In this document: positions 12,005 through 28,816 of the stretch, piece after piece
Numbering within the stretch: the first letter of the stretch is position 1
How the letters are laid out: the number at the start of each line of letters is the position of its first letter
Source of the DNA: Dechloromonas sp.
GTDB lineage: Bacteria; Pseudomonadota; Gammaproteobacteria; Burkholderiales; Rhodocyclaceae
Reading direction: 5' to 3'
DNA: 64,000 nucleotides
Assembly: GCA_008933675.1 (NCBI GenBank)
Contig: WBUO01000001.1
Span: forward strand, 19,239 to 83,238
The notes under the pieces: model-generated
The model's database searches: none
Told to the model about the DNA's origin: nothing
Seen by the model: only the letters and a program-made list of their open reading frames with translations
Translations under genes and position numbers: made by a program

Positions 12005-12212
12005 ATCGCACCGCGGGAAGGCGCCAACGCCGCCCCCCCGCTCGCGCAGCAGTGACTTCCCGATGGAAAACGCAGGGCCCTGCGTTTGAGGTGCAACTCT
12101 CGATGAGGATGGCCGGTGGCGCAGCCGGTTCGGGCAACGGAAATTCAGCCTTGGCCGGCAAAAGCTGCTACGAGATTAGCCTGTCCATGAGAGAGACATT
12201 CCGCGTGGCAAA

Positions 12213-12250
12213 AGCAAAAACGGCAACCTGTGAGGGTTGCCGTTTTTGCT
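12213..12250. terminator. Bidirectional intrinsic terminator between the protease gene and tRNA-Phe
   Basis: 16-bp stem agcaaaaacggcaacc / ggttgccgtttttgct with A and T tracts. Confidence 0.8.
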
Positions 12251-12260
12251 TGGAATGCTT

Positions 12261-12336
12261 TGGTGGCCAATCGCGGAATCGAACCACGGACACGCGGATT
12301 TTCAATCCGCTGCTCTACCAACTGAGCTAATTGGCC
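12261..12336 (-). tRNA. tRNA-Phe (GAA)
   Basis: Reverse complement GGCCAATTAGCTCAGTTGGTAGAGC...TTGAAAA...GGTTCGATTCC...CCA is a 76-nt cloverleaf. Confidence 0.97.
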
Positions 12337-12415
12337 AAAAGGAGGGCGCATTATAGCGAGGTCACCGCCCCCGCGCAACAGGATTGGGCGTCAACAGGGG
12401 ATTCGCGGCACTCGC

Positions 12416-13900
12416 TCAGGGGCCGAGTGGCGGAGACTGGCGATAGAGTTCGGAAAAATCGTCGGGCGGAGGTAACGGCGGTGCCGGCGGACGCCAGGGC
12501 GCGAAGAGCACGCGGGCGATGGCGCCGCGCCCCTTGGGGTTGGGCTTGAGGCTGGCACGGGCGTCGTGCTGGTCGGCAATTTCCTGGACGATGGCGAGAC
12601 CTAGGCCGCTGCCTTCGGTATTCGCATCGTCGACCCGGTAGAAGCGCTCGAAGACCATTTCCGACTGCTCCTCGCTGATGCCGATTCCGTCGTCCTCGAC
12701 TTCCAGGGCAACGCTGCGCGCTGTGACGACGATCCGGCAGGTGACATGCCCGCCGGCCGGCGTGTAGCGGAGGGCATTGTCCACCAGGTTCTTGGCCAGC
12801 TCGCGCAACAGGAAGGCATTGCCGACGATCATCGCCTGGCCTTCCGCCTCGTAGCCGAGATCGATGCCCTTCTCGATGGCGACCATGACCCAGTCCTCGA
12901 CAACCTCGCGGATGAGAACGGCGAGATCGAGCGGTTCGTGTCGCTGTTGCGCCGGCTCGCCGCCGCCCTCGGTACGGGCCAGCGTGAGCAGCTGGTTGAC
13001 CAGGCGGCCGGCACGATCGACGCCGGTGGCGATCTGTTGCAAGGCGTGACGCAGGGATTCCGGATCAGTCTCGCGCATGGCGAACTGGGCCTGGGTCTTC
13101 AGTCCGGTCAGCGGCGTGCGCATCTGGTGTGCGGCATCGGCGACGAAGCGCTGCTGGGCGCCGACATTGCGTTTCATGCGCTCGAGCATTTCGTTGAAGG
13201 CCTCGACCAGCGGCTCCAGCTCTTCCGGCACCCGACGCGTGGCGATCGGCGAAAGGTCGGCCGGATCGCGGGTTTCGATGGTCTGGCGCAGGCGGGTCAG
13301 TGGCCGCAAGCCGCGCGACAGGCCGAACCAGACGAGCATGACGGCGAGCGGGATGATGATGAACTGCGGCAGGATGACGCTGGCAACGATCTTGTTGGCC
13401 AGCTGGTTGCGTTTCTCGGTCGTTTCGGCGACTTCGACGAGAATCCAGTTCTTGCTCGATTCGGTCGTCTCGGCCAGGAAGGTATAAGCGAAGCGCAGAT
13501 CCTGGCCATTGAACTCGGCATCGCGCAGGTAGATTTCGCCGGGCAGCAGGTCGCTCTGGGCGGAGAAATCGGGAATCGGCAGATCGCGATCACCGGCCAG
13601 GAACTTGCCGTTGCGCGTGACCACATGGAAATAGACGGAGTCGGTTTCATCGGCCCGCAGGAAGGCACGAGCCGAGGCCGGCAGGTTGAGTATGGGTTTG
13701 CCGTCGACCAGCTTGACCTGGCGGGCAATGGCGGCAACGTGTTCGCGCAGGGCCTGGTCGTAGGGAAAGTTGGCGACGCTGTTGGCGAAGTAGTGGGTGA
13801 AGGCGATCGACAGCGGCCAGACGAACAGCAGCGGCGCCAGCATCCAGTCGAGAATCTCGCCAAATAGCGAGCGCTCGGTATCGGCAGGAGCAGCAGGCAA
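12416..13900 (-). CDS. Sensor histidine kinase, TctE/QseC-like
   Basis: TM-periplasmic-TM-HAMP, DAAHQMRTP H-box, and N, G1 and G2 boxes. TTG start just after the response regulator stop is inferred. Confidence 0.88.
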   Translation of the reverse strand: MPAAPADTERSLFGEILDWMLAPLLFVWPLSIAFTHYFANSVANFPYDQALREHVAAIARQVKLVDGKPILNLPASARAFLRADETDSVYFHVVTRNGKFLAGDRDLPIPDFSAQSDLLPGEIYLRDAEFNGQDLRFAYTFLAETTESSKNWILVEVAETTEKRNQLANKIVASVILPQFIIIPLAVMLVWFGLSRGLRPLTRLRQTIETRDPADLSPIATRRVPEELEPLVEAFNEMLERMKRNVGAQQRFVADAAHQMRTPLTGLKTQAQFAMRETDPESLRHALQQIATGVDRAGRLVNQLLTLARTEGGGEPAQQRHEPLDLAVLIREVVEDWVMVAIEKGIDLGYEAEGQAMIVGNAFLLRELAKNLVDNALRYTPAGGHVTCRIVVTARSVALEVEDDGIGISEEQSEMVFERFYRVDDANTEGSGLGLAIVQEIADQHDARASLKPNPKGRGAIARVLFAPWRPPAPPLPPPDDFSELYRQSPPLGP

Positions 13901-13901
13901 C

Positions 13902-14573
13902 TCAGTCGCCTTGCGGACGTTCGAGGCAGTAGCCGAGGCCCCGCACGGTGGCGATCTTGACGCCGCCAGCCTCCAGCTTCTTGCGCAGGCGATGCACGTA
14001 AACCTCGATGGCATTGTGGCTGACCTCTTCGCCCCAGCCGCACAGGTGATCGACCAGCTGGTCCTTGCTGACCAGGCGCCCCATGCGGGTCAGCAGGACT
14101 TCCAGCAGGCCGATCTCGCGGGCCGACAGGTCGAGCGTCTGCCCCTGGATCTGTGCGACGCGGCCGACCTGGTCATAGCTCAACTGGCCGCACTGGATGG
14201 TCGGCGTCGTCCCCGCCGAGCGCCGGGTCAGGGCGCGGACGCGGGCTTCCAGCTCGGCCAGCTCGAAAGGCTTGACCATGTAGTCATCGGCCCCGAGATC
14301 GAGCCCCTTGACCCGGTCACCGGTACCGTCGAGGGCAGTGAGGATGAGGACCGGCACCTTGGAACCGCGGGCGCGCAGGCGCTTGAGTACGTCGAGGCCG
14401 GGCAGCTTGGGCAGACCGAGATCGAGAATCAGCAGGTCATAGCTGACGGTGAGCAGGGCGGCATCCGCCTCCAGGCCATTGGGTGCCCAGTCGACGGCAT
14501 ACCCCCCCTGGCGTAACGAACGGGTCAGACCATCGGCGATGATGGCGTCGTCTTCAGCAATCAGAATGCGCAT
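13902..14573 (-). CDS. OmpR-family response regulator, TctD/QseB-like
   Basis: MRILIAEDD, LDLGLP, GADDYMVKPF and the winged-helix IATVRGLGY motif. Confidence 0.92.
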   Translation of the reverse strand: MRILIAEDDAIIADGLTRSLRQGGYAVDWAPNGLEADAALLTVSYDLLILDLGLPKLPGLDVLKRLRARGSKVPVLILTALDGTGDRVKGLDLGADDYMVKPFELAELEARVRALTRRSAGTTPTIQCGQLSYDQVGRVAQIQGQTLDLSAREIGLLEVLLTRMGRLVSKDQLVDHLCGWGEEVSHNAIEVYVHRLRKKLEAGGVKIATVRGLGYCLERPQGD

Positions 14574-14799
14574 ATGTCGATAACCCCGAGCGTCGTAAGA
14601 CTTTTGTAAGCCTGCAACATTAATCTGTGCGGGCTGTTCTCCTTTTATGGTCTTTGGAGTGCGTGGCGCAAGCCGCGACTCAGGGGGTGGTCCGATCCTG
14701 CACTGGGCGACCCCCTACCGTTTTTTTCCCCCGAAACCTGACAAGTCTAGCAAATAAAGTCCGCTGCAAATCTTGCAGCGCACAAGCGCGCCCGTGCGC

Positions 14800-16551
14800 T
14801 CAATGCGGACTGTTGCCCACCGAACCGATGCCCGTTTCCGAGCGGATTTCCTGATCGCGGAAGAGCAGTCGCTCGCGTTGCGCCTGCTCGCCCCGGTCGA
14901 GCAGCGAGAACAGCCAGACGCCGATGAAACCGATCGTCATCGAGAAGAGACAGGGCGAGGCATAGGGGAAGGGGGCAGAGCCCGGCGCATTGTCGAACAC
15001 GCCCTCCCAGATCAGCGGCGAGAACAGCGTCAGCGCAACCGACGAGAGCAAGCCGAGAAAGCCGCCGATCACGGCTCCGCGCGTCGTGCAGTTCTTCCAC
15101 AGCACCGACATGAACAGCACCGGAAAATTGGCCGAGGCTGCTACGGCAAACGCCAGTGAAACCATGTAGGCGATGTTCTGCTTCTCGAAGGCGATACCAA
15201 GCAGGATGGCGACCAGCCCGAGACAAAGCGTTGTCAGACGGGAAACGCGCAGCTCGCCCCGCGGGTCGCCGCACCCCTTGTTGAACACGGCGACATAGAG
15301 GTCGTGTGCGACGGCAGAGGCGCCGGACAAGGTCAGCCCGGCGACGACCGCCAGGATAGTGGCGAAGGCGACGGCAGCGATGAAGCCGAAGAACAGATTG
15401 CCGCCAAGGGCGCTGGCCAGATGCACGGCAGCCATGTTGCTGCCGCCGATGAGCTCCCCCCTGGCATCGAGGAACTGTGGATCGGTCAGCACGAAGGTGA
15501 TGGCACCGAAGCCGATGATGAAGGTCAGCAGGTAGAAGTAACCGATCCAGGTGGTCGCCCAGAGCACGGATTTACGCGCCTCCTTGGCGTTGGGTACGGT
15601 GAAGAAACGCATCAGCACGTGCGGCAGCCCTGCCGTGCCGAACATCAGCGCCAGGCCGAAGGAAATGACGGATACCGGATCGTCGAGGAAGCCCCCGGGC
15701 CCCATGATGGCCAGACCGCCGGCGGCAACCTCGCTGGCCATCAGGTTGGCCGCCTCGACCTGACCGAGACCGCCACTGACCGCCTGGGCAACCAGTTCGC
15801 GCTGGGCGAACTGGGTCTTGACCTCGATCGCCCGGGCGAACAGGGCCTCCGCGCTGAAGCCGTAATGCAGGAGGACGAGAAAGGCCATCAGCGTCGCCCC
15901 GAAGAGCAGCATCACCGCCTTGATGATCTGCACCCAGGTTGTCGACGTCATGCCGCCGACCAGCACATAGGCCGTCATCAGCGCCCCGACGATGAGCACC
16001 GACATCCAGTATTCAAGACCAAACAACAGCTTGACCAGATGACCGGCTCCGACCATCTGGGCGATCAGGTAGAAGGCGACGACGATCAGCGTCGAGATTG
16101 CCGCGAAGCCGCGGATGGGCGTTTGCCGGAAGCGGTAGCCGGCGACATCGGCGAAGGTGAACTTGCCCAGGTTGCGCAGGCGCTCGGCCATCAGGAAGGT
16201 GACGATGGGCCAGCCGACGAGGAAGCCGATCGAGTAGAGCAGGCCGTCGTAACCGTAAACCATGACGGCAGCCGAAATGCCGAGAAAGGAAGCGGCCGAC
16301 ATGTAATCGCCGGCGATAGCCAGGCCGTTCTGAAAACCGGAAATACCACCGCCGACGGCGTAGAAATCAGCCGCCGCCCGCGACTTGGCAGCCGCCCACT
16401 TGGTGGCGTAGAGCATGGCCACGACGAAGAAGCCGAAGCTCATGATCGCCGTCCAGTTGGTCAGCTGCCGGGGTGCCGCAGCCCCTGTCGCCGCCCCGGC
16501 GACGCCGGCCAGGAACAATGCGCCGAGCAGGACGGAGAAGCGGATGATCAC
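14800..16551 (-). CDS. actP: Cation/acetate symporter ActP (SSS family)
   Basis: [34 protein letters not shown] and [11 protein letters not shown] motifs. Confidence 0.9.
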
Positions 16552-16859
16552 TTGCGCAACTCCCGGATGATGTCGTCCTTCAGGGCGTCGAATTCGCGGT
16601 TGGCCCGCCGGACATAGACAGCGGTGACGGCAATGGTGAAGACGATGACACCGATGCCGAGGGGGATGCCGATGGTCGTCGCAGCCATTCCAGCGACAGG
16701 CGTTTCCAGCCAGTCGGCGGCGAAGGCGACCAGGGCCAGGTAGGCCAGATAGACGCCGAGCACCAGCAAGGTCAGGCCCCAGGCAAAACGGCGGCGCGTT
16801 CTCTTGAGAAGAAGGTATTTCGGATTTTCCCGGATCCGCTCATAGATGTTGCTTTGCAT
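16548..16859 (-). CDS. DUF485 (YjcH-like) small membrane protein
   Basis: Two TM helices, [10 protein letters not shown] motif, ATGA overlap with actP. Confidence 0.85.
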
Positions 16860-16940
16860 GAATTGCTTCCCGGACATCAGGCGAGGGGCGCATTCTAGCC
16901 GACGATGGAAGTTTCTTTCGCGGCGCGCAGCGCGGAAATG

Positions 16941-16967
16941 AAAAAACCCCGCGCGAGGCGGGGTTTT
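16941..16967 (-). terminator. groEL intrinsic terminator
   Basis: aaaaccccgc / gcggggtttt stem with a U-tract on the minus strand, 25 bp after the groEL stop. Confidence 0.85.
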
Positions 16968-16992
16968 CGTTAGCCGCAAGGCCGACCGGACA

Positions 16993-18645
<1,653 letters not shown>

Positions 18646-18692
18646 TTAAATAGCTCCTGAATTTGATCTGTTGAGTTGGTCGACTGCAGCGC

Positions 18693-18983
18693 TTACTTCT
18701 GCAGGACACCCATGATGTCTTCTTCACGCATGACCAGGACTTCCTGGCCATCGACCTTGACGGCCTGGCCGGCGTACTTGCCGAACAGGACGCGATCGCC
18801 GACCTTGACGTCGAGGGCGATCTGCTTGCCGTTGTCGTCGCGCTTGCCCGGGCCGACGGCCAGGACTTCGCCCTGATCCGGCTTCTCGCCGGCGGAATCG
18901 GGGATGACGATACCGGAAGCGGTGGTGCGCTCGGCTTCAACGCGCTTGACGATCACGCGGTCGTGCAAAGGACGGATATTCAT
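18693..18983 (-). CDS. groS: Co-chaperonin GroES
   Basis: [14 protein letters not shown]...[12 protein letters not shown]...[10 protein letters not shown]. Confidence 0.98.
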
Positions 18984-19077
18984 AAAGCTGACTCCTGAAC
19001 AATGAGTAGTGAGTTGCGACAGACTGAAATGGGCCGGGCCGGAGCGTTGCGGCACCGGGACCGAACGGGAGCGACTG

Positions 19078-19104
19078 TTAGCACTCGTCGTCGGTGAGTG
19101 CTAA
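19078..19104. promoter_or_regulatory. CIRCE operator (HrcA site)
   Basis: Perfect TTAGCACTC-N9-GAGTGCTAA upstream of groS. Confidence 0.95.
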
Positions 19105-19106
19105 TA

Positions 19107-19133
19107 ATAGGGGCCGACCTGATGGATTTCAAG
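19107..19133 (-). promoter_or_regulatory. sigma32 heat-shock promoter of groESL
   Basis: Minus strand CTTGAA-N14-CCCCTAT, immediately upstream of CIRCE. Confidence 0.8.
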
Positions 19134-19149
19134 GGCCGTCGGTCAACTT

Positions 19150-19237
19150 TGTTCCGTGGTAGGAGGGAAATTTGATTTCGGGATTCTGGCAACTAGAAAT
19201 CGGGATTCTGGCAACTAGAAATTGGGAACGGTGCAAT
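19150..19237 (+). repeat. Left-hand terminal repeat array of 22-bp units (putative transposase-binding sites)
   Basis: cgggattctggcaactagaaat is exactly duplicated (19179-19200, 19201-19222), with degenerate units in the same 22-bp phase starting at the terminal TG (19150). Confidence 0.8.
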
Positions 19238-19368
19238 TCTCCCGGCCGTAGCACGGCGAGTGATCGCCGGTGTAGGGCGCCGTAAGATTTCGACAATAAA
19301 AAAAATTATTTGTCGGCAGTCGTTCGGCGGATGTCTTCGCTTCGCCGTCGGCGCATCATTTTCATCGG

Positions 19369-21120
19369 TTACGGCATGATCATGGTGCGGCCGCTATCGA
19401 TGTCCATCCTCACGCGTGGATTGGTGTTCGATGCGATCACGGCGGCCGGTTCGCCCTTCACGACGACCTCGATCCGCCCATCGAGCTCGGCACGGCTCTT
19501 CTCACGGTAGGCGGCAAACTCGGCTTCCTTATTGAATCCAACGCCGTGAAGGATTTTGCGGAGCGTCTCAGAAACCCCGGATAGCGCATTGACGCGGTTG
19601 CCGTCATTCGATGTGTCGCCCGCCCATTGCGAAACGCCGTACATCAATGCCAACGGGGCTGCGGCCATCCCAATATTTCCGGCCATCCGGAATCCGCCTT
19701 TGGCGGTCGGAATCTTGGCGGCCGGTTTTCCTCCTGGCAAACCAGGAATATCCGTGCCTCCGATGGAGGCGGGCCAGTTGACCACGAAGACAGGGGTTAC
19801 TCCGGCGGCGGCTTCGAGAGCCTTTCCCTGGGCAACGCCAGCAGCGGTTCCGCCGAACTTGTTCATCAGCCCGGAAATGGCTTTCCCGCCGTAACGAGAA
19901 GCGCCGAAGATGCCCAAGGCCCCTAAAGCGCCGCCAGCCAACATGTCTTTCCCGTCCAGTTCCAGCCCGCCGTTTTCCTTCTTCTCGAGACCCCAGTTCA
20001 CAAGGTTGGTAAACGCGTCGTTGATCGGTTGGGCAAACTCGTCGGCGGCAAGGCCGAGAACGCCGCGCAGTCTTTCAGCTGCAACTGCGGCATTGTTGAT
20101 TGACTCCTGAATGTCCCGGCCAGTGCTACCTGCCGCAGTGCTGATAGCTTTCTCGACCGGGCCAAACTTGTCGAGGAGTCCCGTGAGCAAGGCGCGCTGT
20201 CCCTCGATGGTGTCTTTGTCGGCACCGCCGAACGCCATGTCGAGGGCTTTCATCTGCTGGGCGTCCGTCTTGAACCGCTTGAACTTTTCCTGCATCTCGC
20301 GCAGCACCTGAATCGGGTCGCGGTTCATGCCGTTCTCGTCAGTGAATTTAACGCCTGACGCCTTTTCTGCCTTGTCCCGATAATCCTTGATGGTGAACAC
20401 GCGCAGAGTGGATTCCGCCAACGTCGACAGCCGTTCAGGGTTGGGCTGAACAAGGGACAACGTCTCAATGAATGCCAGCGTCTGATCCAGATTCATCCCG
20501 GCGGCCTTGGCCGACCCGCCTACCGTAGCGAACAGGGCGGGCAGGTTGCTCAGTTCTGCAAAACCTTGCTCACCGGCAACCTTCATCTTGTCGAGAACAA
20601 GGCGAGCCTGTTCTATGTCTCGCAGGTCGATTTTGAAATGCTCTTTGACAACACCCAAGGCTTTCGCGAGATCGGCCGCATTGGTCTTTGCCGTTGCCAT
20701 CACTTCGGCAATTGGTCCGATGGTCGCCCTTGCTTCTGTAAGGCTGGCGCCGCCCGCGACCAGGGCGTCAACCCCTTGCCGAAGGGTATCGGTGGACTGA
20801 CCGGTTTGGCGCTGCAGGTCGTAGAGTTCCTTGCGCAAGCCGCCAATTGCCTCGGACGTGGCGCCGGTGGTGTTCTTGAGGTATTGCAGCTCCTTATCCA
20901 GCGCTGCTGACTTCACGATGGTAGCCACGGCGCCGACGGTCAGGCCAAGAGAGGCGAACTGCCCTTGCACGCTGCCTATCATGCCCTTCAAAGCGTCGAA
21001 CTCCTGGCGGGCGCCTCTACCGAAGCGCCGAACGCCGCCTTCGGCTTGGGTCAGGCCAGCCACGAAGCGCGATGCATCTGCATGCAGCCTTACCGCCAGT
21101 GACATGTCTCGGGTGCTCAT
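19369..21120 (-). CDS. Phage tail tape-measure protein
   Basis: 583 aa, Ala/Gly-rich and helical. Starts MSTRDMSLAVRLHADASRFVAGL; core KMKVAGEQGFAELSNL resembles the TP901-type tape-measure core. Confidence 0.8.
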   Translation of the reverse strand: MSTRDMSLAVRLHADASRFVAGLTQAEGGVRRFGRGARQEFDALKGMIGSVQGQFASLGLTVGAVATIVKSAALDKELQYLKNTTGATSEAIGGLRKELYDLQRQTGQSTDTLRQGVDALVAGGASLTEARATIGPIAEVMATAKTNAADLAKALGVVKEHFKIDLRDIEQARLVLDKMKVAGEQGFAELSNLPALFATVGGSAKAAGMNLDQTLAFIETLSLVQPNPERLSTLAESTLRVFTIKDYRDKAEKASGVKFTDENGMNRDPIQVLREMQEKFKRFKTDAQQMKALDMAFGGADKDTIEGQRALLTGLLDKFGPVEKAISTAAGSTGRDIQESINNAAVAAERLRGVLGLAADEFAQPINDAFTNLVNWGLEKKENGGLELDGKDMLAGGALGALGIFGASRYGGKAISGLMNKFGGTAAGVAQGKALEAAAGVTPVFVVNWPASIGGTDIPGLPGGKPAAKIPTAKGGFRMAGNIGMAAAPLALMYGVSQWAGDTSNDGNRVNALSGVSETLRKILHGVGFNKEAEFAAYREKSRAELDGRIEVVVKGEPAAVIASNTNPRVRMDIDSGRTMIMP

Positions 21121-21223
21121 TTTGGCCTCTCAGCGTGAATGGGTTACAGCCATGGGTCGAGGGCCATTGAGACGCTATGGCTGCTCTTGCGTCTCTGGCG
21201 TTACTCAGAGGAGGATTCCCAAG

Positions 21224-21778
21224 CTATTCGGTGATGCCGGCGCTCGTCAGCTGGCTGGCAAGTTCGTCGCGCTTGCTGATCAGCTCGTCCATTTGCTGAT
21301 CGATTTCGGCAATGCGCTTGCGGCGCTCATCAATCGGCATGCCGCCTTCCTGCCAGGCGTGTGCAGTGTCCATGGCATCCATGAAGCGTTCGGCAATCAA
21401 GTCACCGAAATACCAATAGAAGGCACCCGGTGAGATATTGAAGCCGTCGAAGCATTCATCGCCATTCATGTACGGAAATTGCTGAGACTGGCCGGCGTTG
21501 TGGACGCGCTCCAGGGCACCAAAGCTCAGATTGAGATTGGCTCCGCTGGTTTTTCCGCCCCGGGCGAAACGACGCAATTGATTCAGGAACGGGCCACAGC
21601 GCCGGGAGATATCAGCCTTCACATAGGCGGCGTAATCCGCCCGGCTGACGGGCGCATCGATCAACGCCTGGCGTTCATGATTCAGCTGGTTGATTTGCTC
21701 ATCCAGTGCCTGGATTTCGGTCTTGACCGATTCAGCAACCTTTTTTAGCTTGCCCAGAATGTTGGTCAGTTCAGACAT
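21224..21778 (-). CDS. Hypothetical 184-aa protein with N- and C-terminal coiled coils
   Basis: Heptad segments EIQALDEQINQLNHERQALI and RIAEIDQQMDELISKRDELASQL flank an aromatic central region; overlaps the upstream 60-aa ORF. Confidence 0.75.
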   Translation of the reverse strand: MSELTNILGKLKKVAESVKTEIQALDEQINQLNHERQALIDAPVSRADYAAYVKADISRRCGPFLNQLRRFARGGKTSGANLNLSFGALERVHNAGQSQQFPYMNGDECFDGFNISPGAFYWYFGDLIAERFMDAMDTAHAWQEGGMPIDERRKRIAEIDQQMDELISKRDELASQLTSAGITE

Positions 21779-21953
21779 GTTGCTGCTCCTGGTCGATTTG
21801 ACTGGCCGCCGCTTTGGAAAATGCTTTCGAAAACGGCTCGATTACGCGGACTTCCAAGAGCGGCGCGGCTTCCGCGCTGGAGAGTTCGATTACATCCCCG
21901 GTGTTGTAGGTCTGATGGTTGAAGTCAATACGGCTCAGTGCTCGATATTTCAT
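21771..21953 (-). CDS. Small 60-aa phage-type protein (possible head-associated domain)
   Basis: MKYRALSRIDFNHQTYNTGDVIELSSAEAAPLLEVRVIE resembles small domains found in phage head modules; good RBS (ggagcaacgttatg). Confidence 0.55.
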   Translation of the reverse strand: MKYRALSRIDFNHQTYNTGDVIELSSAEAAPLLEVRVIEPFSKAFSKAAASQIDQEQQHV

Positions 21954-21970
21954 AACGTTGCTCCTTCGGA

Positions 21971-22726
21971 TTATTTGCGGTGTTGCGTAACGTGATTGAC
22001 GGCTTGGAGGCTGGTGACAAAAGTACCGGCGGCAGCCATCGACTCCTGGTAGGCCAGTGCCGCAGTGGCAATGTCTTGGGCGGATGCCGGCTTGCTGCTC
22101 TGGGCCCGGGAAATGCTGCTCAACTGCTGTTGCTGGCTGACGTGGCTGACGGCCTGGACGCTGGTGACAAAAGTACCGGCGGCAGCCATCGACTCCTGAT
22201 AGGCCAGCGCCGCAGTGGCAATTTCTTGAGCCGTTGCCGGTTGGCCGTGCAGACGACGGGAGGCGGCGGCCAGGTCGGTCAAGCCGTCAAGGGCGGGGTT
22301 GTTCGTCAAGGCAATGTTGATGATGTCCAGAACCCGCCCGGCATCGTCATGGTGGAAGGTAGGGGAAATGAACCGATATTCCTTGGCGCGGATCATTGCC
22401 GATGCCCGTTCCGTCCATCGTGCGTCGGTCACATAGAGTCCGTCACCCTCCCGCCATTCCAAACGCTTGAACCACCCGGCCGCCGGATTCGGCTGGCCGT
22501 TGCTGGCCGTGTTGAGCGTCTGGTGCTCGTAGTCGATGACGTAGTCACCGAACCGGGCGGCGGCCAGCTTGACGATAGACAGCGCCTCAGGGCGGTTGAG
22601 TTGCCAGCCTTGAAGCCCGTGGGGGCGGCCATCGGATGCCGAGAAGCGGCCAGCCGGCATGATTCGGAAGGCGGCTAAGGGGGCGGTAAGCGGTTGGGTA
22701 GAGCAATTGGCGAGTAGTGTTCTCAT
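21971..22726 (-). CDS. Mu gpI-like prohead protease with a duplicated C-terminal motif
   Basis: IMPAGRF...DGRP, VIDYEHQT, PAAGW, WTERA...I..KEYRFISPTF and ALTNNPAL are Mu-like protease I motifs. Confidence 0.85.
   Translation of the reverse strand: MRTLLANCSTQPLTAPLAAFRIMPAGRFSASDGRPHGLQGWQLNRPEALSIVKLAAARFGDYVIDYEHQTLNTASNGQPNPAAGWFKRLEWREGDGLYVTDARWTERASAMIRAKEYRFISPTFHHDDAGRVLDIINIALTNNPALDGLTDLAAASRRLHGQPATAQEIATAALAYQESMAAAGTFVTSVQAVSHVSQQQQLSSISRAQSSKPASAQDIATAALAYQESMAAAGTFVTSLQAVNHVTQHRK
21990..22228 (-). repeat. Two ~89-bp direct repeats at 150-bp spacing inside the protease gene
   Basis: 21990-22078 and 22140-22228 encode Q(E/D)IATAALAYQESMAAAGTFVTS(V/L)QAV(S/N)HV twice. Confidence 0.9.
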
Positions 22727-22735
22727 GACGCCTCG

Positions 22736-23068
22736 TTACGGTGTTTTCTTCGGAGCTTCGGCGTGGCGCATGTCGCGCGCCCGCCAAAGAATTTGCCGAA
22801 TTCGCATGGTCGATAGGCCGTGTTTCTGTGCCAGCTCGGCATGGTTTCGCCCGTTGAACTCAGCGATGATTTGCTGATCCCGGTTGCGGGTCTTGCCATT
22901 GGCGCCGGAGGGGATGTAAAGCGCTTGCCCCTTCCAGTGCTGCCGCATCTTCTCGGCAATCGAGATGGCTTTCTGACTGGCGTCAGGTGCGCCAATGCCT
23001 TCCTTGACGAACTCTTGCTCCAATTGAATGGCAAGGTCTTCAAGCAGGCCGTCTGCGCTCAAGTCCAT
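22736..23068 (-). CDS. Mor/C-family transcription activator
   Basis: HWKGQALYIP...RNRDQQIIAEFNGRNHAELAQKHGLSTMRIRQIL is the Mor family signature. Confidence 0.9.
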   Translation of the reverse strand: MDLSADGLLEDLAIQLEQEFVKEGIGAPDASQKAISIAEKMRQHWKGQALYIPSGANGKTRNRDQQIIAEFNGRNHAELAQKHGLSTMRIRQILWRARDMRHAEAPKKTP

Positions 23069-23108
23069 TTTTCCCCTTCCGTTGTATTCGGTTGGGGCTA
23101 TCGTGCCG

Positions 23109-23142
23109 CTCGGTAAAGGGCTTTACCGAGTAAAGGGCTTTA
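23109..23142. promoter_or_regulatory. Palindromic/tandem operator candidate upstream of mor
   Basis: ctcggtaaag-gg-ctttaccgag dyad (23109-23130); the core taaagggcttta occurs at 23114 and again at 23131. Confidence 0.5.
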
Positions 23143-23483
23143 GTAAGTTGATGGGGGCTGCCGTGGCATCGTTTGCGGCGCAGGCGGCAAGCGATCTACC
23201 TTTTACCCATCTCGGGGATTGCCGAGCACCGCGAGTGCCAGCCGCCTGCCCCGAATTTCGATAAACTGCTCCTGCAGCTCGCCGGAGTGTCAGGAAAAGC
23301 GCCGTCTGACATCATGGGGCTTCGGGCCTGATGGTCATGCGGGAGTGCCTGGTTCGACCAGGATGGTGTCCCGCCCGGCGAGTCTGCATCTTTCCCCTCA
23401 TCTGGTAACGCCCGAGAACCGCGTTAATGGTGCGTTAATTTCGATTTTCGCGGGTCGGTTGGTATCTCGGGTCCAACTGGAAA

Positions 23484-23518
23484 GAAAAAACCGCCAGAGA
23501 GCGATTCTGGCGGTTTTT
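23484..23518. terminator. Intrinsic terminator ending the early operon of the element
   Basis: aaaaaaccgccagag...ttctggcggttttt hairpin with A/T tracts on both sides. Confidence 0.75.
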
Positions 23519-23547
23519 GTAGCACGCGATCGTCGAGAAAACTCTTC

Positions 23548-23724
23548 TCATGTAAATCGCGGATCGTTTTGGGGTTGCATGCTTGCCTGTTGCCGCTGCA
23601 ATCGGCTTGATAGCGGCTTTATAAGCGTACTGCCAATCCGAAATGAAAATGCACCGCTCAGGACTGTTGCCAGTTCGGCTATAGGCTGGTGAATTTGGTG
23701 GTCATTTGGTCTTGTTGTTTGCAT
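23548..23724 (-). CDS. Small 58-aa hypothetical ORF, last gene of the early operon (below the ORF-track cutoff)
   Basis: Manual translation MQTTRPNDHQIHQPIAELATVLSGAFSFRIGSTLIKPLSSRLQRQQASMQPQNDPRFT*. Lies 25 bp after gemA, has an AAGG RBS, and ends just before the terminator. Confidence 0.4.
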   Translation of the reverse strand: MQTTRPNDHQIHQPIAELATVLSGAFSFRIGSTLIKPLSSRLQRQQASMQPQNDPRFT

Positions 23725-23749
23725 GGTCGATTGCCTTTTGTGTGATTGA

Positions 23750-24172
23750 TCAGTTTTTCTTCTGTTTCGCGTGCAGCCATCCCTCTAATCCGTTGATCAG
23801 GCTGGCCATGCCGTGCCGGTCGAGAAAACGGGGGCTGTGTACTTTGCATACGCGCTTGCAGAAGGTGATCAAGGCTGGATCGTGGGCCGCGCCGGACATA
23901 CCCAGCTTCTTGGAGAGGTCGAGCGCGTAGCGCCATTGGTGCTGTGTTGGTTGCTCTGGATTGCCGGAGTCGGGCAGCGGTGCGGCAGGATTGGGGGCGA
24001 GAGCACCGAGGTCGCGTAACAGGTCAACGAGCATGGACAACTGCGCGTCACTGCAGGCCTTGCTGCTGCGCTGGCCGGTGTGTTTCTGCATCCAGGCGCG
24101 GCGAGTGTCCTCATCCCAGCCCAGGCGCTTAGTACCGGCGTGCAGCATCTTGTTGAGGGCGACGCGGTTCAT
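23750..24172 (-). CDS. GemA/gp16-like (DUF1018) Mu-type regulatory protein
   Basis: LHAGTKRLGWDEDTRRAWMQKHTGQRSSKACSDAQLSMLVDLL...LINGLEGW; ATGA overlap with the ATPase. Confidence 0.8.
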   Translation of the reverse strand: MNRVALNKMLHAGTKRLGWDEDTRRAWMQKHTGQRSSKACSDAQLSMLVDLLRDLGALAPNPAAPLPDSGNPEQPTQHQWRYALDLSKKLGMSGAAHDPALITFCKRVCKVHSPRFLDRHGMASLINGLEGWLHAKQKKN

Positions 24173-25185
24173 GGCTTGCCCCGCTTGTTGGCTTTGCCGG
24201 ACAAATCGGGCTTGAGCTGCTCGGCCAGCTTTTGGAGAAGCCCGGCATCCACCTGAACGCCATACATCTTTTCGGCAATGCGGAAGACGTCAGCCAGGGC
24301 GCGTAGGCCGCCGTTTTGTTCGGGGCGGCAAGCGATGCTGCAGGCGACTTCGGTCAGCTTCTTGCGCTCAGCCGGCGTCATGCCATTGCCGGCGCCGCGC
24401 CAGGCCAGCCAGGCGTCGACGTCTTCTTCGGTGGTGGCGGCGAAATCGTAGCGATTGGCGCGGCTGGCCAGGCGGGCAAATTTGGTGCTCTTGCCCCAGA
24501 CCATGCCGCTTAAATCGGGGTTGCCTTGCATCACGATGGAGATGTCCACGGCGTCGTGGATGCTGGCCACAACGTTCAACGCTTCGCCTAGGAGCTGGCA
24601 TTCATCCAGGATCAATTGGTCTCCGGGGCGCAGGGCCGATGTGACGCCGCCCATGAGATTGCCGTTTCGATAGGCGTGGCTCGGGGCGTTGAGGTGCAGG
24701 GCGATTTTTGCCAGGGCGGCGGCCGGCTTGGCGTCGCCTTCGTCGAACTGGATGCGCACGGCGCCCGGCTGGCTGTGAGTGCGGGGATGGCTGGCACAGT
24801 AAAAGCGTGCCGCCTCGCTTTTACCAATGCCCCAGGCGCCAGTAATGGCCAGGAAAAAGCCACCTTGCTGGGCTTGGGTGTAAAGGTTTTGCAGGTGGGT
24901 GAAGGTCGGCGTGATGGCGTAGCCGGCATCGTCGGCGCCGCCTTTTTGTTCGCTTTCGAGCCATGCGGCTAATGCCTGAATGGCTTCGGTGGTGTCTTCG
25001 TCCTGAAGGTTGCCGTATTGGCGAATCGGCTGCCCTGCAATGATGCGGTTTAACGCCGCTTCGTCAACGCCGGAGAGCCAGGCGATTTTGGTTCGGGTGA
25101 AGCCCGATGCCAGACGGGATTCAACTTGCTGCAAGATGGCTTTCTGTGGGTCGGTAAACACGTCTTCCCGATGTTTGTATAGCAT
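24169..25185 (-). CDS. MuB-like AAA+ transposition ATPase
   Basis: N-terminal HTH, Walker A GAWGIGKS, Walker B LILDECQ and an R-finger region (RLASRA); directly follows the transposase. Confidence 0.88.
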   Translation of the reverse strand: MLYKHREDVFTDPQKAILQQVESRLASGFTRTKIAWLSGVDEAALNRIIAGQPIRQYGNLQDEDTTEAIQALAAWLESEQKGGADDAGYAITPTFTHLQNLYTQAQQGGFFLAITGAWGIGKSEAARFYCASHPRTHSQPGAVRIQFDEGDAKPAAALAKIALHLNAPSHAYRNGNLMGGVTSALRPGDQLILDECQLLGEALNVVASIHDAVDISIVMQGNPDLSGMVWGKSTKFARLASRANRYDFAATTEEDVDAWLAWRGAGNGMTPAERKKLTEVACSIACRPEQNGGLRALADVFRIAEKMYGVQVDAGLLQKLAEQLKPDLSGKANKRGKP

Positions 25186-25196
25186 GGCGCTCTTCC

Positions 25197-27425
25197 TTAT
25201 GACTTGGCGGTTATGAGGGCTTTTAATGGGTCAAAGGCCGGGGATTCCCGGCTTAGCTTTTGTGCTTCCAGGGCTGGGGGCGCAAATCTCAGCGGGTCAA
25301 AGTCGATGGCGGTCGGCTTTGGCCCGCTTTCATTGATGGGCTGCATGTCGATGATGTGGCCCTCGGTGGGGTGCCGTAATTGCCCTGGTAGCAGCTTGGC
25401 CGGGGCTGGGAGTTGCATGGCGGCTAGCGCGTCGCCGATGGCTTCGCCTTCGGCGGTGGTGATGAGTGGACCATCCGGCAGCGTGGGCGCCGGAGGAAGT
25501 TCGGCATTAACGCGGACGGCTTCGGTCAGCAGATTGAGGGTTTTGGTTTGCCCCTTGAGTTGCTGTACATGGGCAAGTTTCAGGCCGTTAAGGCGCGATT
25601 GTTCCTTGGCGCCTTGGCCATCTTCCTGTGCGTAGGCGTCCGCTTGGGGAATTGCATGCAGTTGCCCGCTATCGTCCAAATAGAACAAGGCTTCACGCGC
25701 CCATTTGGCATAGCGGATTTCGACGGTTTGGCCGATCAACGGGACGATGATGTCGGCGCGGTACCAGGTCTTAATTCCGCGTTCCTCAACGACGAGGCCG
25801 CCCGTTTTGACCTTGATTTTGCGGATCTCGGAGAAGGCAAAAATCAGGTCGTGCCGGGAGACTCGGACAGCTCGCCAACCTTCTTCAATGGCCTTGCGTC
25901 GCTTGTCATTCGGGCTGCTGCCATCCTTTTGGGCGGTGTTGCGGTAGAGGTCGAGACATGTCCTGATATCGTGGGCAAAGTCGTCATCGGCGCCACGGTA
26001 GGCCTTTGGTTCCTGGCCAACCAGTTGTGTCCGCTTGTTCATGCGGTCACCGCCAACCCAACCAGGCATCAGTGAGAAAAACTGATATTCGACGATGGCA
26101 AAAACGTGCTCAATCTGTTTGGCTGGGGCGTTGTAAGGGCGAGCCCTCGATATCGCGGCGAACTGCTCACCATCGATCAATTCGGCTGCTTCACCTTTGC
26201 CCATGATGCTGACGTGAAAGGCCTGAAAGGCACTGACCAGGCCGGCCAGCGCCTGAAACCCTTTGATCATGGCATCCCATTTGTATTCCTTGCCGTTGTC
26301 CAGGCGTAGCTGTTTCGGAAGTCCCCAGGCTTGCACCATGTCAACGAAGGATGCGGCGATGTCGGCCTGTGTGATGCCTTTTCCGGGCGGGAGAATGACC
26401 ACGGTAACGAACAGGTCATAGGTGGCCACGTCCAGCCAGGAAATCAGGCGTGCATGGACCGTCCGGCCGTCGATCTCTCTGGCCACGTCCATCGGGTGGA
26501 CGTCGCCAATGACAATGTCGCTGGGCTTGTAACCATTACGATGCCGCTGAACGCGTGGCATCTGGGTGTCGAAAAAGCGCTTAGCGTTCTTTTCCTTGAG
26601 TGCGACCAAGGCGAATTCACGGAATTTTTCGACAAAGGGGCGGCCGGGTTCGCAACTCTTCAGCGTGGCGCCATCCCAGCCCGCAAGTCGGCATTGCTCC
26701 AGGAGTTCAACGCTGGCGAGCTGGTTGACGCGCTTCCAGCCGGGCGCACCTTCTTTCCACAGTGTTTTTACGTGGGTTTCCATGTGGGCGGCGATTTCAG
26801 CCTTTTTGTCGTTGGCCAACGGACATGCCTTGTCCCACGCCCGCGAAATCAGCACGCGGGGCGCACTTTCCTTACGGCGCTTTCGTTGCAAGGCCTGTTC
26901 GCCCTGTTCTTCGACGATTTTCAGCCAGGCTTCGAGGGTGCTAACGGCCGGCCTCCACGGCTTGCCGTTGGGCTTGGTGGTTTCCTTGGCAGCCGTGGCT
27001 TTCAAGGCCTCCCCTCGTTCCTTGCTGAACTTGGGGAATTGCAGCGCGTCGGCCAGCAACTCGAGCCGCCAGCGCCATAGCGCGTAGTCATCGGAAATTC
27101 TTGCGCTGTAGCGTCCTGGCGATGGGAGCGTTACTGATTCAGCTTCCTGAAGGGCGTGGCATGCCTGGTAACGCTTGTGCCAAATATCGCGCAAATCGGC
27201 GGGCAGACTAGGGCCGTAGGCTTGCAATGCGTTGCCTTCATAGCGTGCCATGAGGTCAACGCCTCGCCACTGCGCTCCCGATATGGCGGCAGTTAATGTC
27301 CGCCTCGCTTGACGTTCAGACAGGCCGGACAGCGCAGCGAATACCGATGTTGGTATCCATACGGATTCCCCGTTTGTGGCCGGTGGAATTTGGGGCAGGT
27401 TTCTTCTTGCTGCAGCGGATGACAC
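25197..27425 (-). CDS. MuA-like DDE transposase
   Basis: 742 aa; candidate triad GDVHPMD / RLDNGKEY / AKQIEHVF; GTG start abutting the ner-like gene. Confidence 0.88.
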   Translation of the reverse strand: MSSAAARRNLPQIPPATNGESVWIPTSVFAALSGLSERQARRTLTAAISGAQWRGVDLMARYEGNALQAYGPSLPADLRDIWHKRYQACHALQEAESVTLPSPGRYSARISDDYALWRWRLELLADALQFPKFSKERGEALKATAAKETTKPNGKPWRPAVSTLEAWLKIVEEQGEQALQRKRRKESAPRVLISRAWDKACPLANDKKAEIAAHMETHVKTLWKEGAPGWKRVNQLASVELLEQCRLAGWDGATLKSCEPGRPFVEKFREFALVALKEKNAKRFFDTQMPRVQRHRNGYKPSDIVIGDVHPMDVAREIDGRTVHARLISWLDVATYDLFVTVVILPPGKGITQADIAASFVDMVQAWGLPKQLRLDNGKEYKWDAMIKGFQALAGLVSAFQAFHVSIMGKGEAAELIDGEQFAAISRARPYNAPAKQIEHVFAIVEYQFFSLMPGWVGGDRMNKRTQLVGQEPKAYRGADDDFAHDIRTCLDLYRNTAQKDGSSPNDKRRKAIEEGWRAVRVSRHDLIFAFSEIRKIKVKTGGLVVEERGIKTWYRADIIVPLIGQTVEIRYAKWAREALFYLDDSGQLHAIPQADAYAQEDGQGAKEQSRLNGLKLAHVQQLKGQTKTLNLLTEAVRVNAELPPAPTLPDGPLITTAEGEAIGDALAAMQLPAPAKLLPGQLRHPTEGHIIDMQPINESGPKPTAIDFDPLRFAPPALEAQKLSRESPAFDPLKALITAKS

Positions 27426-27426
27426 A

Positions 27427-27621
27427 TCACACCTCGACGATATCGCCGTTCTTTAGTCCAAGGAGGACGGCAATTCTGTGAGCCTTCCCGCGATAGCACT
27501 TGGCCTCGCCGTTAAGGACGCGGTGCACGGCCAGTCTCGTGAAACCGTTTGAGCGAGCCCAGCCTGTTATGGTGATTCCCTTCTGACGGAATTCAGTCTT
27601 TACCTGTTCGGCGGTCTTCAT
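27427..27621 (-). CDS. Ner/Cro-like DNA-binding protein (BcepMu gp16-like)
   Basis: MKTAEQVKTEFRQKGITITGWARSNGF...VLNG..KCYRGKAHRIAVLLGLK; first early gene, divergent from the repressor. Confidence 0.85.
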   Translation of the reverse strand: MKTAEQVKTEFRQKGITITGWARSNGFTRLAVHRVLNGEAKCYRGKAHRIAVLLGLKNGDIVEV

Positions 27622-27666
27622 TTACGCTACCTCTCAACAATCAGATTTGTATCACAAGGGATTCAA

Positions 27667-28167
27667 TTGAATATCACTTTGCCGGGCTTTGCAAGCGGAG
27701 ATGACTCCTTTCCAGTCGCGCTTGGTCGCCGGATACGGGAGGTTAGAGAGGCAAAACGCTTGAGCCAGCGCGAATTTGGCGCATTGGGCGGTGTGCTGAA
27801 ACTTGCCCAGATGAACTATGAAAGAGGTGTTCGTGTGCCTTCAGCCGAATACCTATATTCGCTGAGTCTTCATGGCATCGATACCCACTACCTGCTGACA
27901 GGCAAAAGGAGTGGCGATGCAGTGGCGAATCTCCCCGGTATTGATGGGCAGATGCTGGCAGCGAGCGTGGACACCGTCTGGCGGTTTTCCAAGGATGCGA
28001 TCCCCGCATTAAGCAGCGAGGACTTTGCGCGTTGCGTTAGCTTGTTGTACTCGGCTCTTTCGCTCGTCGGACGTAAGGTGACCCGCAAGACAGCGGACGA
28101 ACTTGGTGTGTTGCTGGTTACTACCTTTATTGCAGGCTTGGATCGGAAGCCGGATGGCCGCAAGTGA
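27667..28167 (+). CDS. XRE-family repressor (Mu c-like position), no peptidase domain
   Basis: LGRRIREVREAKRLSQREFGALGGV...NYERGVRVPSAEYL...GIDTHYLLTG. The start codon is uncertain. Confidence 0.85.
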   Translation: MNITLPGFASGDDSFPVALGRRIREVREAKRLSQREFGALGGVLKLAQMNYERGVRVPSAEYLYSLSLHGIDTHYLLTGKRSGDAVANLPGIDGQMLAASVDTVWRFSKDAIPALSSEDFARCVSLLYSALSLVGRKVTRKTADELGVLLVTTFIAGLDRKPDGRK

Positions 28168-28431
28168 TGGCCGCTTATGTCCGCAAGCGCTTTCTAATAT
28201 GCCCCTGTTTTTTCCTCTAACCCGCGCCACAACGTGGTTTCGAGCGATGTCCGCAAACTTCGCAATCCCCCGTGGGCTCGTGGTGTGGCTTGCTGGTGCC
28301 CTTGTTCGTTTTGAATCGCGTTTGGGCTAGAAACTGTGCGGTATTCCGAGCTTTTTGCTTGAACGTGTACCAGAAATTTGCAAAGTGCCGAGGTGGGGCC
28401 ACCAAGCTCCAACCCGCTTAAATACTGGGCA

Positions 28432-28493
28432 CGGTTCCAGTTTAATTGTTGCCAGCGTTCCAGATTTCAAACACCACCCCTAGTGGCGGAGCA
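28432..28493 (-). repeat. Right-hand terminal inverted repeat of the element
   Basis: Reverse complement TGCTCCG...TTGAAATCTGGAACGCTGGCAAC...GGAACCGTGC mirrors the left end TGTTCCG...TTGATTTCGGGATTCTGGCAAC...GGAACGGTGC. Confidence 0.7.
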
Positions 28494-28816
28494 GATCGCC
28501 ACCTGGTGGCAGTTGTCCAGTTCGGCCACCCACAGCCAGCCACCAACCGGAAAGCCAGCGCAGGGAATTCCGGAAGAATTTTTTACCACACCGGGGCACA
28601 CCGGAAAAATCGTAACCAAAACAAAACATTAAAACCGGAAACGATCCGCAACATATACAAATGGCATCATTTCGCCAAATGGCGCCGAAACACCAGAAAA
28701 AGAATCATCCCGTTTCATGCATTCCGCCCATAGAATAGCCCCCGCCTGCTTATGGTCATAGGTTTCTCAGCACGCTGTCCGTCGTTAGTCCCCCAACTTC
28801 GTTTCGCCAGCCAAGA

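Follow-up and report, generated by a model that had tools for sequence, protein, structure and literature searches.

Complete Mu-like phages are about 35-40 kb in size, whereas a 9.3-kb element in a contig of Dechloromonas sp. (WBUO01000001.1) carries the transposition and regulation genes of such a phage and, of the virion gene set, only a protease domain and a tape measure. Is this element the remnant of a full-size prophage, a transposon that moves on its own or, as a first-pass annotation made from the sequence alone had proposed, a phage satellite? To address this question, we analyzed a stretch of 64,000 nucleotides of the contig (hereafter, the window) and compared the element with related loci elsewhere. 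Our analysis favors a satellite: we put the probability that the element represents a new, transposition-based kind of phage satellite, parasitic on full-size Mu-like phages, at roughly 55%. As expected of a phage satellite, it has no particle-building gene set of its own, it has kept its own maintenance and replication functions, and it belongs to a recurring and conserved family. This is apparently an undescribed family of 8-11-kb "mini-Mu" elements; full-text literature searches for satellites of a Mu-like or transposable kind yielded no report of it, in agreement with the earlier statement that no satellite family built on MuA and MuB was known.

A Mu-like early module followed by four late genes

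The gene content of the element was established from a listing of open reading frames (ORFs) combined with family scans (Pfam, PHROG, and NCBIfam). The element comprises 9,323 bp (19160-28482, minus strand), with a G+C content of 0.58 compared with 0.63-0.66 in the flanks. Its genes follow the Mu order reported in the first-pass annotation: a divergent repressor gene; ner and the genes for a transposase, a MuB-like ATPase, and GemA, closed by a terminator; and then a late operon encoding Mor, a protease (ProN), two proteins named p60 and p184, and a tape measure protein (TMP; Table 1). The claim that only four late genes follow mor, and that virion, packaging, and lysis genes are missing, was borne out by the family scans, which detected within the element no homolog of lysis, terminase, portal, capsid or major head, sheath, tube, or baseplate genes. 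The same scans detected within the element no tyrosine or serine integrase, no primase-replicase, and no AlpA-type regulator. The late genes are closely spaced (9 nt between mor and the protease gene, 17 nt between the protease gene and p60, and an 8-nt overlap of p60 and p184). Deletion breakpoints inside genes, which the annotation had listed as evidence against its own proposal, were not found, and the junctions hold neither gene fragments nor leftovers of neighboring phage genes.

As in Mu-like phages, a DDE transposase, a MuB-type ATPase, and a repressor/ner region lie between two transposon ends. The transposase has no match in Pfam, NCBIfam, or the PDB, and none at E<=1e-10 among 50,697 phage genomes; its identity is based on PHROG 310 and synteny only. 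Homologs at 33-41% identity are encoded in other mini-elements, and the transposase of one relative (L053) is far closer (see below). The early operon ends with a 58-amino acid ORF and a strong intrinsic terminator. The late operon starts about 400 nt past this terminator, behind a dyad and direct repeat that is a candidate activator site or promoter, and mor together with about 450 nt of upstream DNA (22757-23520) is 93% identical to the corresponding region of L053.

The element has transposon ends and a 4-bp target duplication

The first-pass annotation had placed the ends of the element at 19150 and 28493 and had described TG..CA termini, and both points had to be revised. An alignment of four right ends (window, L053, L054, and L017) locates the right terminus at 19160, as the sequences diverge totally directly after ...AAATTTCCCTCC(T/C)A. 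The left terminus, which reads ...CCACCCCTA, was placed at 28482 by symmetry with the right end. The earlier positions were thus misplaced by about 10 bp, the termini lying 10-11 bp further inside, and the ends (5'-TAGGAGGG and 5'-TAGGGGTGG) begin with 5'-TAGG, not with TG..CA.

The identical 4-mer GTGG stands outside both termini. When the rule of a 5'-TA(G/A)G terminus is applied to relatives, flanking repeats are recovered in L033 (GCGG/GCGG) and L034 (GCAC/GCAC); termini and duplications in L015, L032, L059, and L061 were ambiguous and were left unused. Since a 4-bp flanking repeat in three out of three elements is far beyond chance, we conclude that these elements were inserted by transposition with a 4-bp target duplication. 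The TG..CA ends and 5-bp duplication of Mu itself are therefore not shared by the window element, L033, or L034. Phased repeats lie just inside both termini, those of the right end starting at 19166, 19188, and 19210 (22-bp spacing) and their inverted copies lying on the left.

We also looked for the uninterrupted insertion site. The element is absent from six genomes of the same genus, in which homology to the window ends about 20 bp before the terminus, and no clean empty site was found among them. In same-genus genomes (L048-L052), the interval between the groES promoter and a chemoreceptor gene is variable and holds 4.4-14.5 kb of other genes, a response-regulator gene included. The DNA bordering the element in the window (19139-19159 and 28487-28816) was compared with that interval, which has nothing in common with the 330 bp at 28487-28816, so that the intergenic region is itself a variable spot.

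Table 1. Features of the mini-element and of the adjacent host genes, ordered by position in the window.
Feature	Positions	Strand	Evidence or remark
Host groEL, same direction, downstream	16993-18645	-	
Host groES, same direction, downstream	18693-18983	-	
Host groES promoter (TTGAAA-17-TATTAT), followed by CIRCE inverted repeat	19104-19132	-	27 nt beyond the element terminus
Target-site duplication copy GTGG, right end	19156-19159	.	Same 4-mer at both termini
Right (late-side) transposon end, three 22-bp phased repeats	19160-19240	-	Alignment; imperfect inverted repeat with the left end
TMP, tail tape measure protein, 583 aa, last gene before the end	19369-21120	-	Pfam PhageMin_Tail E=4e-22; PHROG tape-measure families
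p184, all-helical coiled-coil protein, 184 aa	21224-21778	-	Conserved family
p60, 60-aa protein	21771-21953	-	Weak DUF7210 match
ProN, Mu gpI-type head-maturation protease domain, 251 aa	21971-22726	-	Pfam Mu-like_Pro (PF10123) E=3e-57; PHROG 328 E=2e-60
Late activator of the Mor family, first in the late operon	22736-23068	-	Pfam Mor E=7e-23; PHROG 532
Dyad and direct repeat (TAAAGCCCTTTAC x2) upstream of mor	23100-23150	-	Read from the sequence
Intrinsic terminator, end of early operon	23485-23517 (about)	-	Stem AAAACCGCCAGA/TCTGGCGGTTTT, then T-run
GemA	23750-24172	-	Pfam GemA E=5e-17
MuB-like AAA+ transposition ATPase	24169-25185	-	Pfam AAA_22; PHROG 296 "DNA transposition protein" E=5e-26
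Transposase, divergent Mu-like type, 742 aa	25197-27425	-	PHROG 310 E=9e-27, residues 21-663
Ner-like regulator, BcepMu gp16 family	27427-27621	-	TIGR04111 E=1.5e-25; PHROG 925 E=3e-28
Divergent helix-turn-helix repressor	27667-28167	+	PHROG 8 and PHROG 4 (transcriptional repressor); weak HTH_3/HTH_31
Left (repressor-side) transposon end	28400-28482	+	Inverted repeat with the right end
Target-site duplication copy GTGG, left end	28483-28486	.	

The late cassette recurs in independent mini-elements

The genomic contexts of p184 homologs were taken from metagenome contigs and genomes. The first-pass annotation had looked to independent insertions with the same minimal set of late genes as support for a family, and about 20 independent mini-elements, 8-11 kb long and mostly from Rhodocyclaceae-like betaproteobacteria and Thiobacillus, indeed carry the cassette formed by the protease, p60, and p184 genes. 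The recurrent order is early module, Mor, scaffold-less protease, p60, p184, transposon end, and host genes. Host genes border the cassette carriers L003, L007, L014, L017, L021, L023, L027, L032, L033, L034, L035, and L059. They include genes for patatin (L003), GroES (L017/L019 and L027), and NrdA (L014, L034, and L035), and in L021, which lies in a 1-Mb contig, host and IS21 genes stand on both sides within about 11 kb. Two carriers are complete genomes, with the element located between the isocitrate lyase gene and ahpC in L032 and at nrdA in L033.

None of the cassette-bearing mini-elements has portal, terminase, sheath, or baseplate genes, and in none of the roughly 20 contexts does p184 lie within a full-size prophage. 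Despite the large size of its family, p184 also has no match in the 50,697 phage genomes or in IMG/VR, so that, for p184, the confinement of homologs to full-length prophages, named beforehand as a finding that would speak against a satellite, is the opposite of what we observed.

Several members depart from the basic layout. L015, a contig of 8850 nt, holds a complete element of 8.7 kb that encodes Mor, p184, and a major head protein, with p184 sitting ahead of the head gene. L061 (G034:C8:40501-60500, ~11500-19700) has a transposase of the same type (41% identity), a full protease/scaffold gene, a major head gene, and a gp38-like gene, with host genes next to them. Portal, terminase, and tail genes are absent from both L015 and L061. 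L023 adds a tube-like gene, and L021, L022, and L059 carry a gpG-like gene. In Thiobacillus (L059; CP059257.1), the order is ProN, p60-like, p184-like, Mor, gpG-like, a 367-amino acid TMP-like protein, a 202-amino acid gene product, and groES. A distant p184-like protein (208-214 amino acids) precedes a short protease in L053 and L058. The latter locus (Craterilacuibacter sinensis WSSB01000005.1, 9365-10905) has the p184-like and short protease genes followed by an AlpA-type gene, beside Mu-type baseplate genes. Judging from this gene arrangement, the cassette may also be carried on a non-transposon backbone.

Module exchange and purifying selection among mini-elements

The TMP gene and the right end of the window element recur at other chromosomal sites in L053 and L054; the next host gene is SlipAM in L054, and the flank of L053 is a different one. 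Identity between the window and L053 is uneven, reaching 93% for MuA, 81% for GemA, 83% for Mor, and 93% for TMP, but only 40% for MuB and 50% for the protease. Moreover, p60 and p184 separate the protease and TMP genes in the window but are missing from the corresponding place in L053, where nothing intervenes. These unequal module identities, together with the presence or absence of p60-p184, indicate that modules are exchanged among mini-elements.

To evaluate selection, we compared nonsynonymous with synonymous substitution rates (dN/dS). For copies at different loci, dN/dS is 0.09-0.11 for TMP against L053 and L054 (dS 0.38-0.70) and 0.22 for MuA. Pairs with unsaturated dS gave 0.24-0.29 for p184, 0.32 for ProN, and 0.39-0.86 for p60. 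The late genes are under purifying selection, the ratios for TMP, p184, and ProN in unsaturated pairs (0.09-0.32) lying below 1, which the first-pass annotation had named as support for a family.

These data bear on the possibility that the element is a decaying remnant of a full-size Mu-like prophage whose ORFs are open by chance or because the decay is recent. It is true that the genes for transposition and regulation clearly derive from Mu-like phages, as do those for the protease and the tape measure, that KS10-type phages natively have the protease gene after mor (PMC2628397), which would reduce the number of deletions needed, and that one family member (L017/L018) has frameshifts and no helper is present. 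Against this, about 20 independent insertions from different genera share one minimal architecture, the two ends and the target duplications are intact, dN/dS lies well under 1 between copies at different loci, mini-elements exchange modules and have junctions free of gene fragments, and p60 and p184, which are specific to the elements, were not detected in phages. For all these reasons, we consider random decay very unlikely and strongly disfavor a remnant. The earlier suggestion of selective retention is supported by the recurrence, the purifying selection, and the clean junctions.

A protease without its scaffold, and its neighbors p60 and p184

ProN covers only positions 2-209 of the 330 positions of the Pfam Mu-like_Pro family, positions 210-330 being unmatched. 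Over residues 1-155, it shares about 50% identity with the proteases of Ralstonia phage RS138 and of Pseudomonas B3/D3112-like phages, and it retains all residues that are invariant across mini-element and phage proteins, including D65, E67, H68, Q69, and S121. ProN is thus a gpI protease domain in which the family-invariant residues are kept, with a predicted catalytic function. The phage proteins end in a scaffold (Z) part of about 130 amino acids, which ProN lacks; two copies of a ~40-amino acid helical repeat (21981-22095 and 22131-22245 at the DNA level) take its place. A fold search of the protease against the PDB gave nothing below E=0.1, and a sequence search of the PDB with the protease profile gave no match.

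In L023, L033, and L034, the protease domain comes from another family (PHROG 976, first ~175 of 415 positions) and still precedes p60-p184. As scaffold-less proteases of two families (PHROG 328 and PHROG 976) occupy this position, the architecture itself seems to be selected, which suggests that the scaffold-less protease, p60, and p184 form a conserved unit. Among public sequences, most of the closest homologs of the protease are short (170-290 amino acids) and consist of the N-terminal domain only; their sources include Burkholderia, Laribacter, Thiobacillus, and Accumulibacter. gpI proteases of this scaffold-less kind are widespread, the short forms being very common in betaproteobacteria, and many further mini-elements can probably be recognized by them.

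p60 is always located upstream of p184, and the pair is kept in L003, L007, L014, L017, L021, L023, L027, L032, L033, and L059. We found 17 close homologs of p184, all of about 184 amino acids, and a profile search extended the family to 573 cluster representatives of ~165-240 amino acids. The AlphaFold model of p184 (pLDDT 83.5) predicts an antiparallel coiled coil or helical hairpin around a small helical core. A fold search against PDB and viral libraries returned nothing below E=0.1, and the p184 profile has no similarity to the scaffold part of phage gpI. From its position and composition, we propose that p184 is a partner of the protease or a scaffold. As a separate observation, tRNA-like 3' halves (GGTTCGAATCC-type) lie on the opposite strand about 200-480 nt past p184 in L007, L008, and L009, and are also found in L022; they were rejected as tRNA genes, as ARAGORN calls none there.

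The last late gene encodes a tape measure with more than 200 homologs of 585-620 amino acids that align over 100% of its length, and this full-length homology rules out a gene fragment. In L055, a 52%-identical homolog stands inside a complete Mu-type tail module (gp36, gpG, gp37, sheath, tube, Gp41, TMP, and gp43-48). No leftovers of such neighbors (gp41, gp43, and others) were found around TMP in the window.

Search for a helper and points that weigh against a satellite

A satellite of Mu-like phages needs a phage to exploit, and the co-resident complete Mu-like prophage that the first-pass annotation had suggested looking for was found neither in the genome of the window nor in the two complete carrier genomes. 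This is the first of several observations that weigh against the satellite. In the window genome, which comprises 531 contigs and is estimated to be complete, we found neither a second Mu-like protease or transposase nor a Mu-like gene for the major head protein, and a Mu-like capsid gene is absent from five of six other carriers, both complete genomes included. With no resident Mu-like capsid gene, any helper would therefore have to arrive by infection. The family of elements is also rare among species representatives, occurring in 7 of 301 genomes of its bacterial family, in none of six from the same genus, and in one more among 400 of the order. The L017/L018 copy has frameshifts in mor and the protease gene, and some copies decay. 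Neither p184 nor ProN gave an informative fold match, their roles as scaffold or partner being drawn from position and composition, and a tape measure of normal length has no obvious use for a satellite.

Regarding the frameshifted copy, it occupies the groES site (L017 2-722 and L018 1549-2749), its p60 and p184 genes are open, and it may be a decaying copy or reflect an assembly error across several samples.

Phages that could act as helpers do exist. Metagenomic contigs of 38-42 kb represent Mu-type myophages with a tape measure 50-58% identical to that of the element, and these are candidate helper types. In addition, L065, a Mu-like prophage of full size from the same bacterial family, encodes a related transposase.

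The main rival to the satellite is an autonomous mini-transposon whose cargo interferes with phages: it would not be packaged and would move by its own transposition and passive transfer, while Mor-driven expression of ProN, p60, p184, and TMP would disrupt the building of heads and tails by invading Mu-like phages and so protect the host population. The conserved cassette, its purifying selection, and the lack of a resident helper would also fit this case; a protease free of its scaffold tether and a tape measure out of context could plausibly act in a dominant-negative manner, and the late regulators of an invading phage could trigger Mor or cross-talk with it. However, the PADLOC defense models detected nothing relevant in the element, its wide horizontal spread and the mosaic exchange between genera require a transfer vehicle, and the complete capsid gene sets of L061 and L015 look made for building particles and not for blocking them. 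In addition, interference and packaging are combined in known satellites, so that this rival overlaps with a satellite lifestyle. We consider an element that only interferes unlikely.

Insertions are concentrated upstream of groES and nrdA

Among about 13 elements with a known right flank, four lie just upstream of groES (window, L017, L027, and L059) and four just upstream of nrdA (L014, L033, L034, and L035), and in all eight the late operon is co-directional with the host gene. The distance from the terminus to the groES -35 box is 27 nt in the window and 37 nt in L017; the stretches concerned at groES are 19104-19160 in the window, 1675-1713 in L017, and 14720-14990 in L059. Vertical inheritance of shared sites was considered and rejected, as same-site elements are not each other's closest relatives: their p184 proteins are only 19-58% identical, compared with 88% for host GroEL and 77-80% for ribonucleotide reductase, and the closest relatives (L003, L017, and L032, 76-81% identical) are at three different sites. 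The same-site elements are therefore independent insertions. This is a strong target bias for a Mu-type transposon, and one that is unexpected for Mu-like transposition.

Such a bias raises the possibility that the host has co-opted the element to regulate stress and replication promoters and retains it because late read-through or the ends modulate groESL or nrdA. Eight independent, co-directional insertions would fit, as would the window itself, where no intrinsic terminator was detected between the TMP gene and the element end and read-through into groESL is possible. Read-through is nevertheless weakened as an explanation by a clear terminator after p184 in several relatives (e.g., L014 and L007), the host promoters are intact downstream of the insertion, close relatives lie at unrelated sites, and same-genus genomes do without the element. 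Co-option would also leave the conservation of virion-type genes unexplained, and we regard it as highly improbable.

Proposed life cycle

Returning to the satellite, its life cycle could be as follows. The repressor would keep the element silent, and its own transposase and MuB-like ATPase would copy and insert it with a 4-bp target duplication. Apart from a few genes under the control of Mor, all virion, packaging, and lysis genes would have been given up. Growth of a full-size Mu-like myophage in the same cell would derepress the element, which would replicate by transposition and then express the scaffold-less prohead protease, its partners p60 and p184, and its own tape measure. These proteins might join or redirect the head assembly of the helper and, in this sub-lineage, its tail assembly as well, p184 serving as a substitute scaffold and possibly giving capsids sized for ~9 kb. 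The helper terminase would package the element by the headful from its left end, and helper tails and lysis genes would spread it. In short, the element would be induced by a helper, would remodel its capsid or tail, and would be packaged and transferred, and ProN, p184, and TMP may reprogram helper assembly.

Taken together, these could be the first recognized self-transposing satellites of Mu-like phages, which would replicate and integrate by means of their own transposase and MuB-like ATPase in place of an integrase or replicon. A modular head cassette, to which genes for capsid, tube, gpG, or tape measure can be added, would hijack the virions of the helper, and insertion would be preferentially upstream of groESL and nrdA promoters. 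For this combination of properties as a whole, our confidence is tentative and falls somewhat short of even odds.

Comparison with known satellites and Mu-like phages

The element resembles P4, the satellite of P2, in its size of about 10 kb, its lack of virion genes, its own replication and maintenance, its late-gene activator, and a putative capsid-remodeling protein, as the p184 coiled coil might redirect head assembly in the way that Sid does in P4. It differs from P4 in having no integrase, primase-replicase, cos site, or AlpA, and in relying on DDE transposition with MuB instead; the protease domain, p60, p184, and tape measure are in turn all absent from P4.

With Staphylococcus aureus pathogenicity islands (SaPIs) and other phage-inducible chromosomal islands (PICIs), including the capsid-forming cf-PICIs, the element shares the selective retention of a few head-morphogenesis genes, which range from the scaffold-like CpmB to the full capsid sets of cf-PICIs. 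Mini-elements of the p184 type parallel the CpmB case of SaPIs, and the capsid-encoding L015 and L061 parallel cf-PICIs. However, PICIs integrate site-specifically through tyrosine integrases and redirect packaging through terS or cos, whereas the element transposes with a 4-bp duplication, has no terminase subunit, and in some members carries a tail gene, the tape measure.

The laboratory mini-Mu is a shortened genome between Mu ends that is replicated by transposition and packaged by helper Mu, by the headful from the left end. The element likewise has Mu-type ends around a shortened genome. Mini-Mu is, however, engineered and has no morphogenesis cassette, whereas the present family is natural and diversified and encodes a transposase and an ATPase of its own as well as Mor and conserved proteins related to virions. 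Packaging of the element in nature would be expected to proceed along the lines of mini-Mu transduction.

Among complete phages, the element is close to the KS10/BcepMu-type transposable myophages of Burkholderia and relatives: its ner gene belongs to the BcepMu gp16 family, and its tape measure is one of Mu-type myophages. In KS10, mor is directly followed by a protease gene with a nested scaffold and then by a head gene, and the genome has no TG..CA termini (PMC2628397), a trait shared with the element. These phages differ in their size of 33-40 kb, in their full head, tail, and lysis modules, and in the scaffold nested in the protease gene; the element lacks the scaffold part, has p60 and p184, and encodes a transposase with no close relative in sequenced phages. 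KS10-type phages, in which mor stands directly before the protease/scaffold and head genes and which have no TG..CA ends, are likely the ancestral stock of the mini-elements.

Implications for phage parasitism and host biology

If the mini-elements are satellites, Mu-type transposition would be a new mobility strategy in phage hyperparasitism; to our knowledge, all described satellite families integrate by site-specific recombinases. Helper-dependent generalized transduction of flanking host DNA would follow, because packaging would be by the headful. A protease stripped of its scaffold, together with a novel coiled-coil protein, is a candidate for a new mechanism of capsid hijacking, and the insertions at groESL and nrdA point either to a targeting rule not yet recognized or to a functional connection with the chaperonin and the supply of deoxyribonucleoside triphosphates. 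Because p184 is absent from IMG/VR, these elements are invisible to virus-detection pipelines, and their abundance in bacteria of wastewater and activated sludge, such as Accumulibacter and Dechloromonas, may be underestimated.

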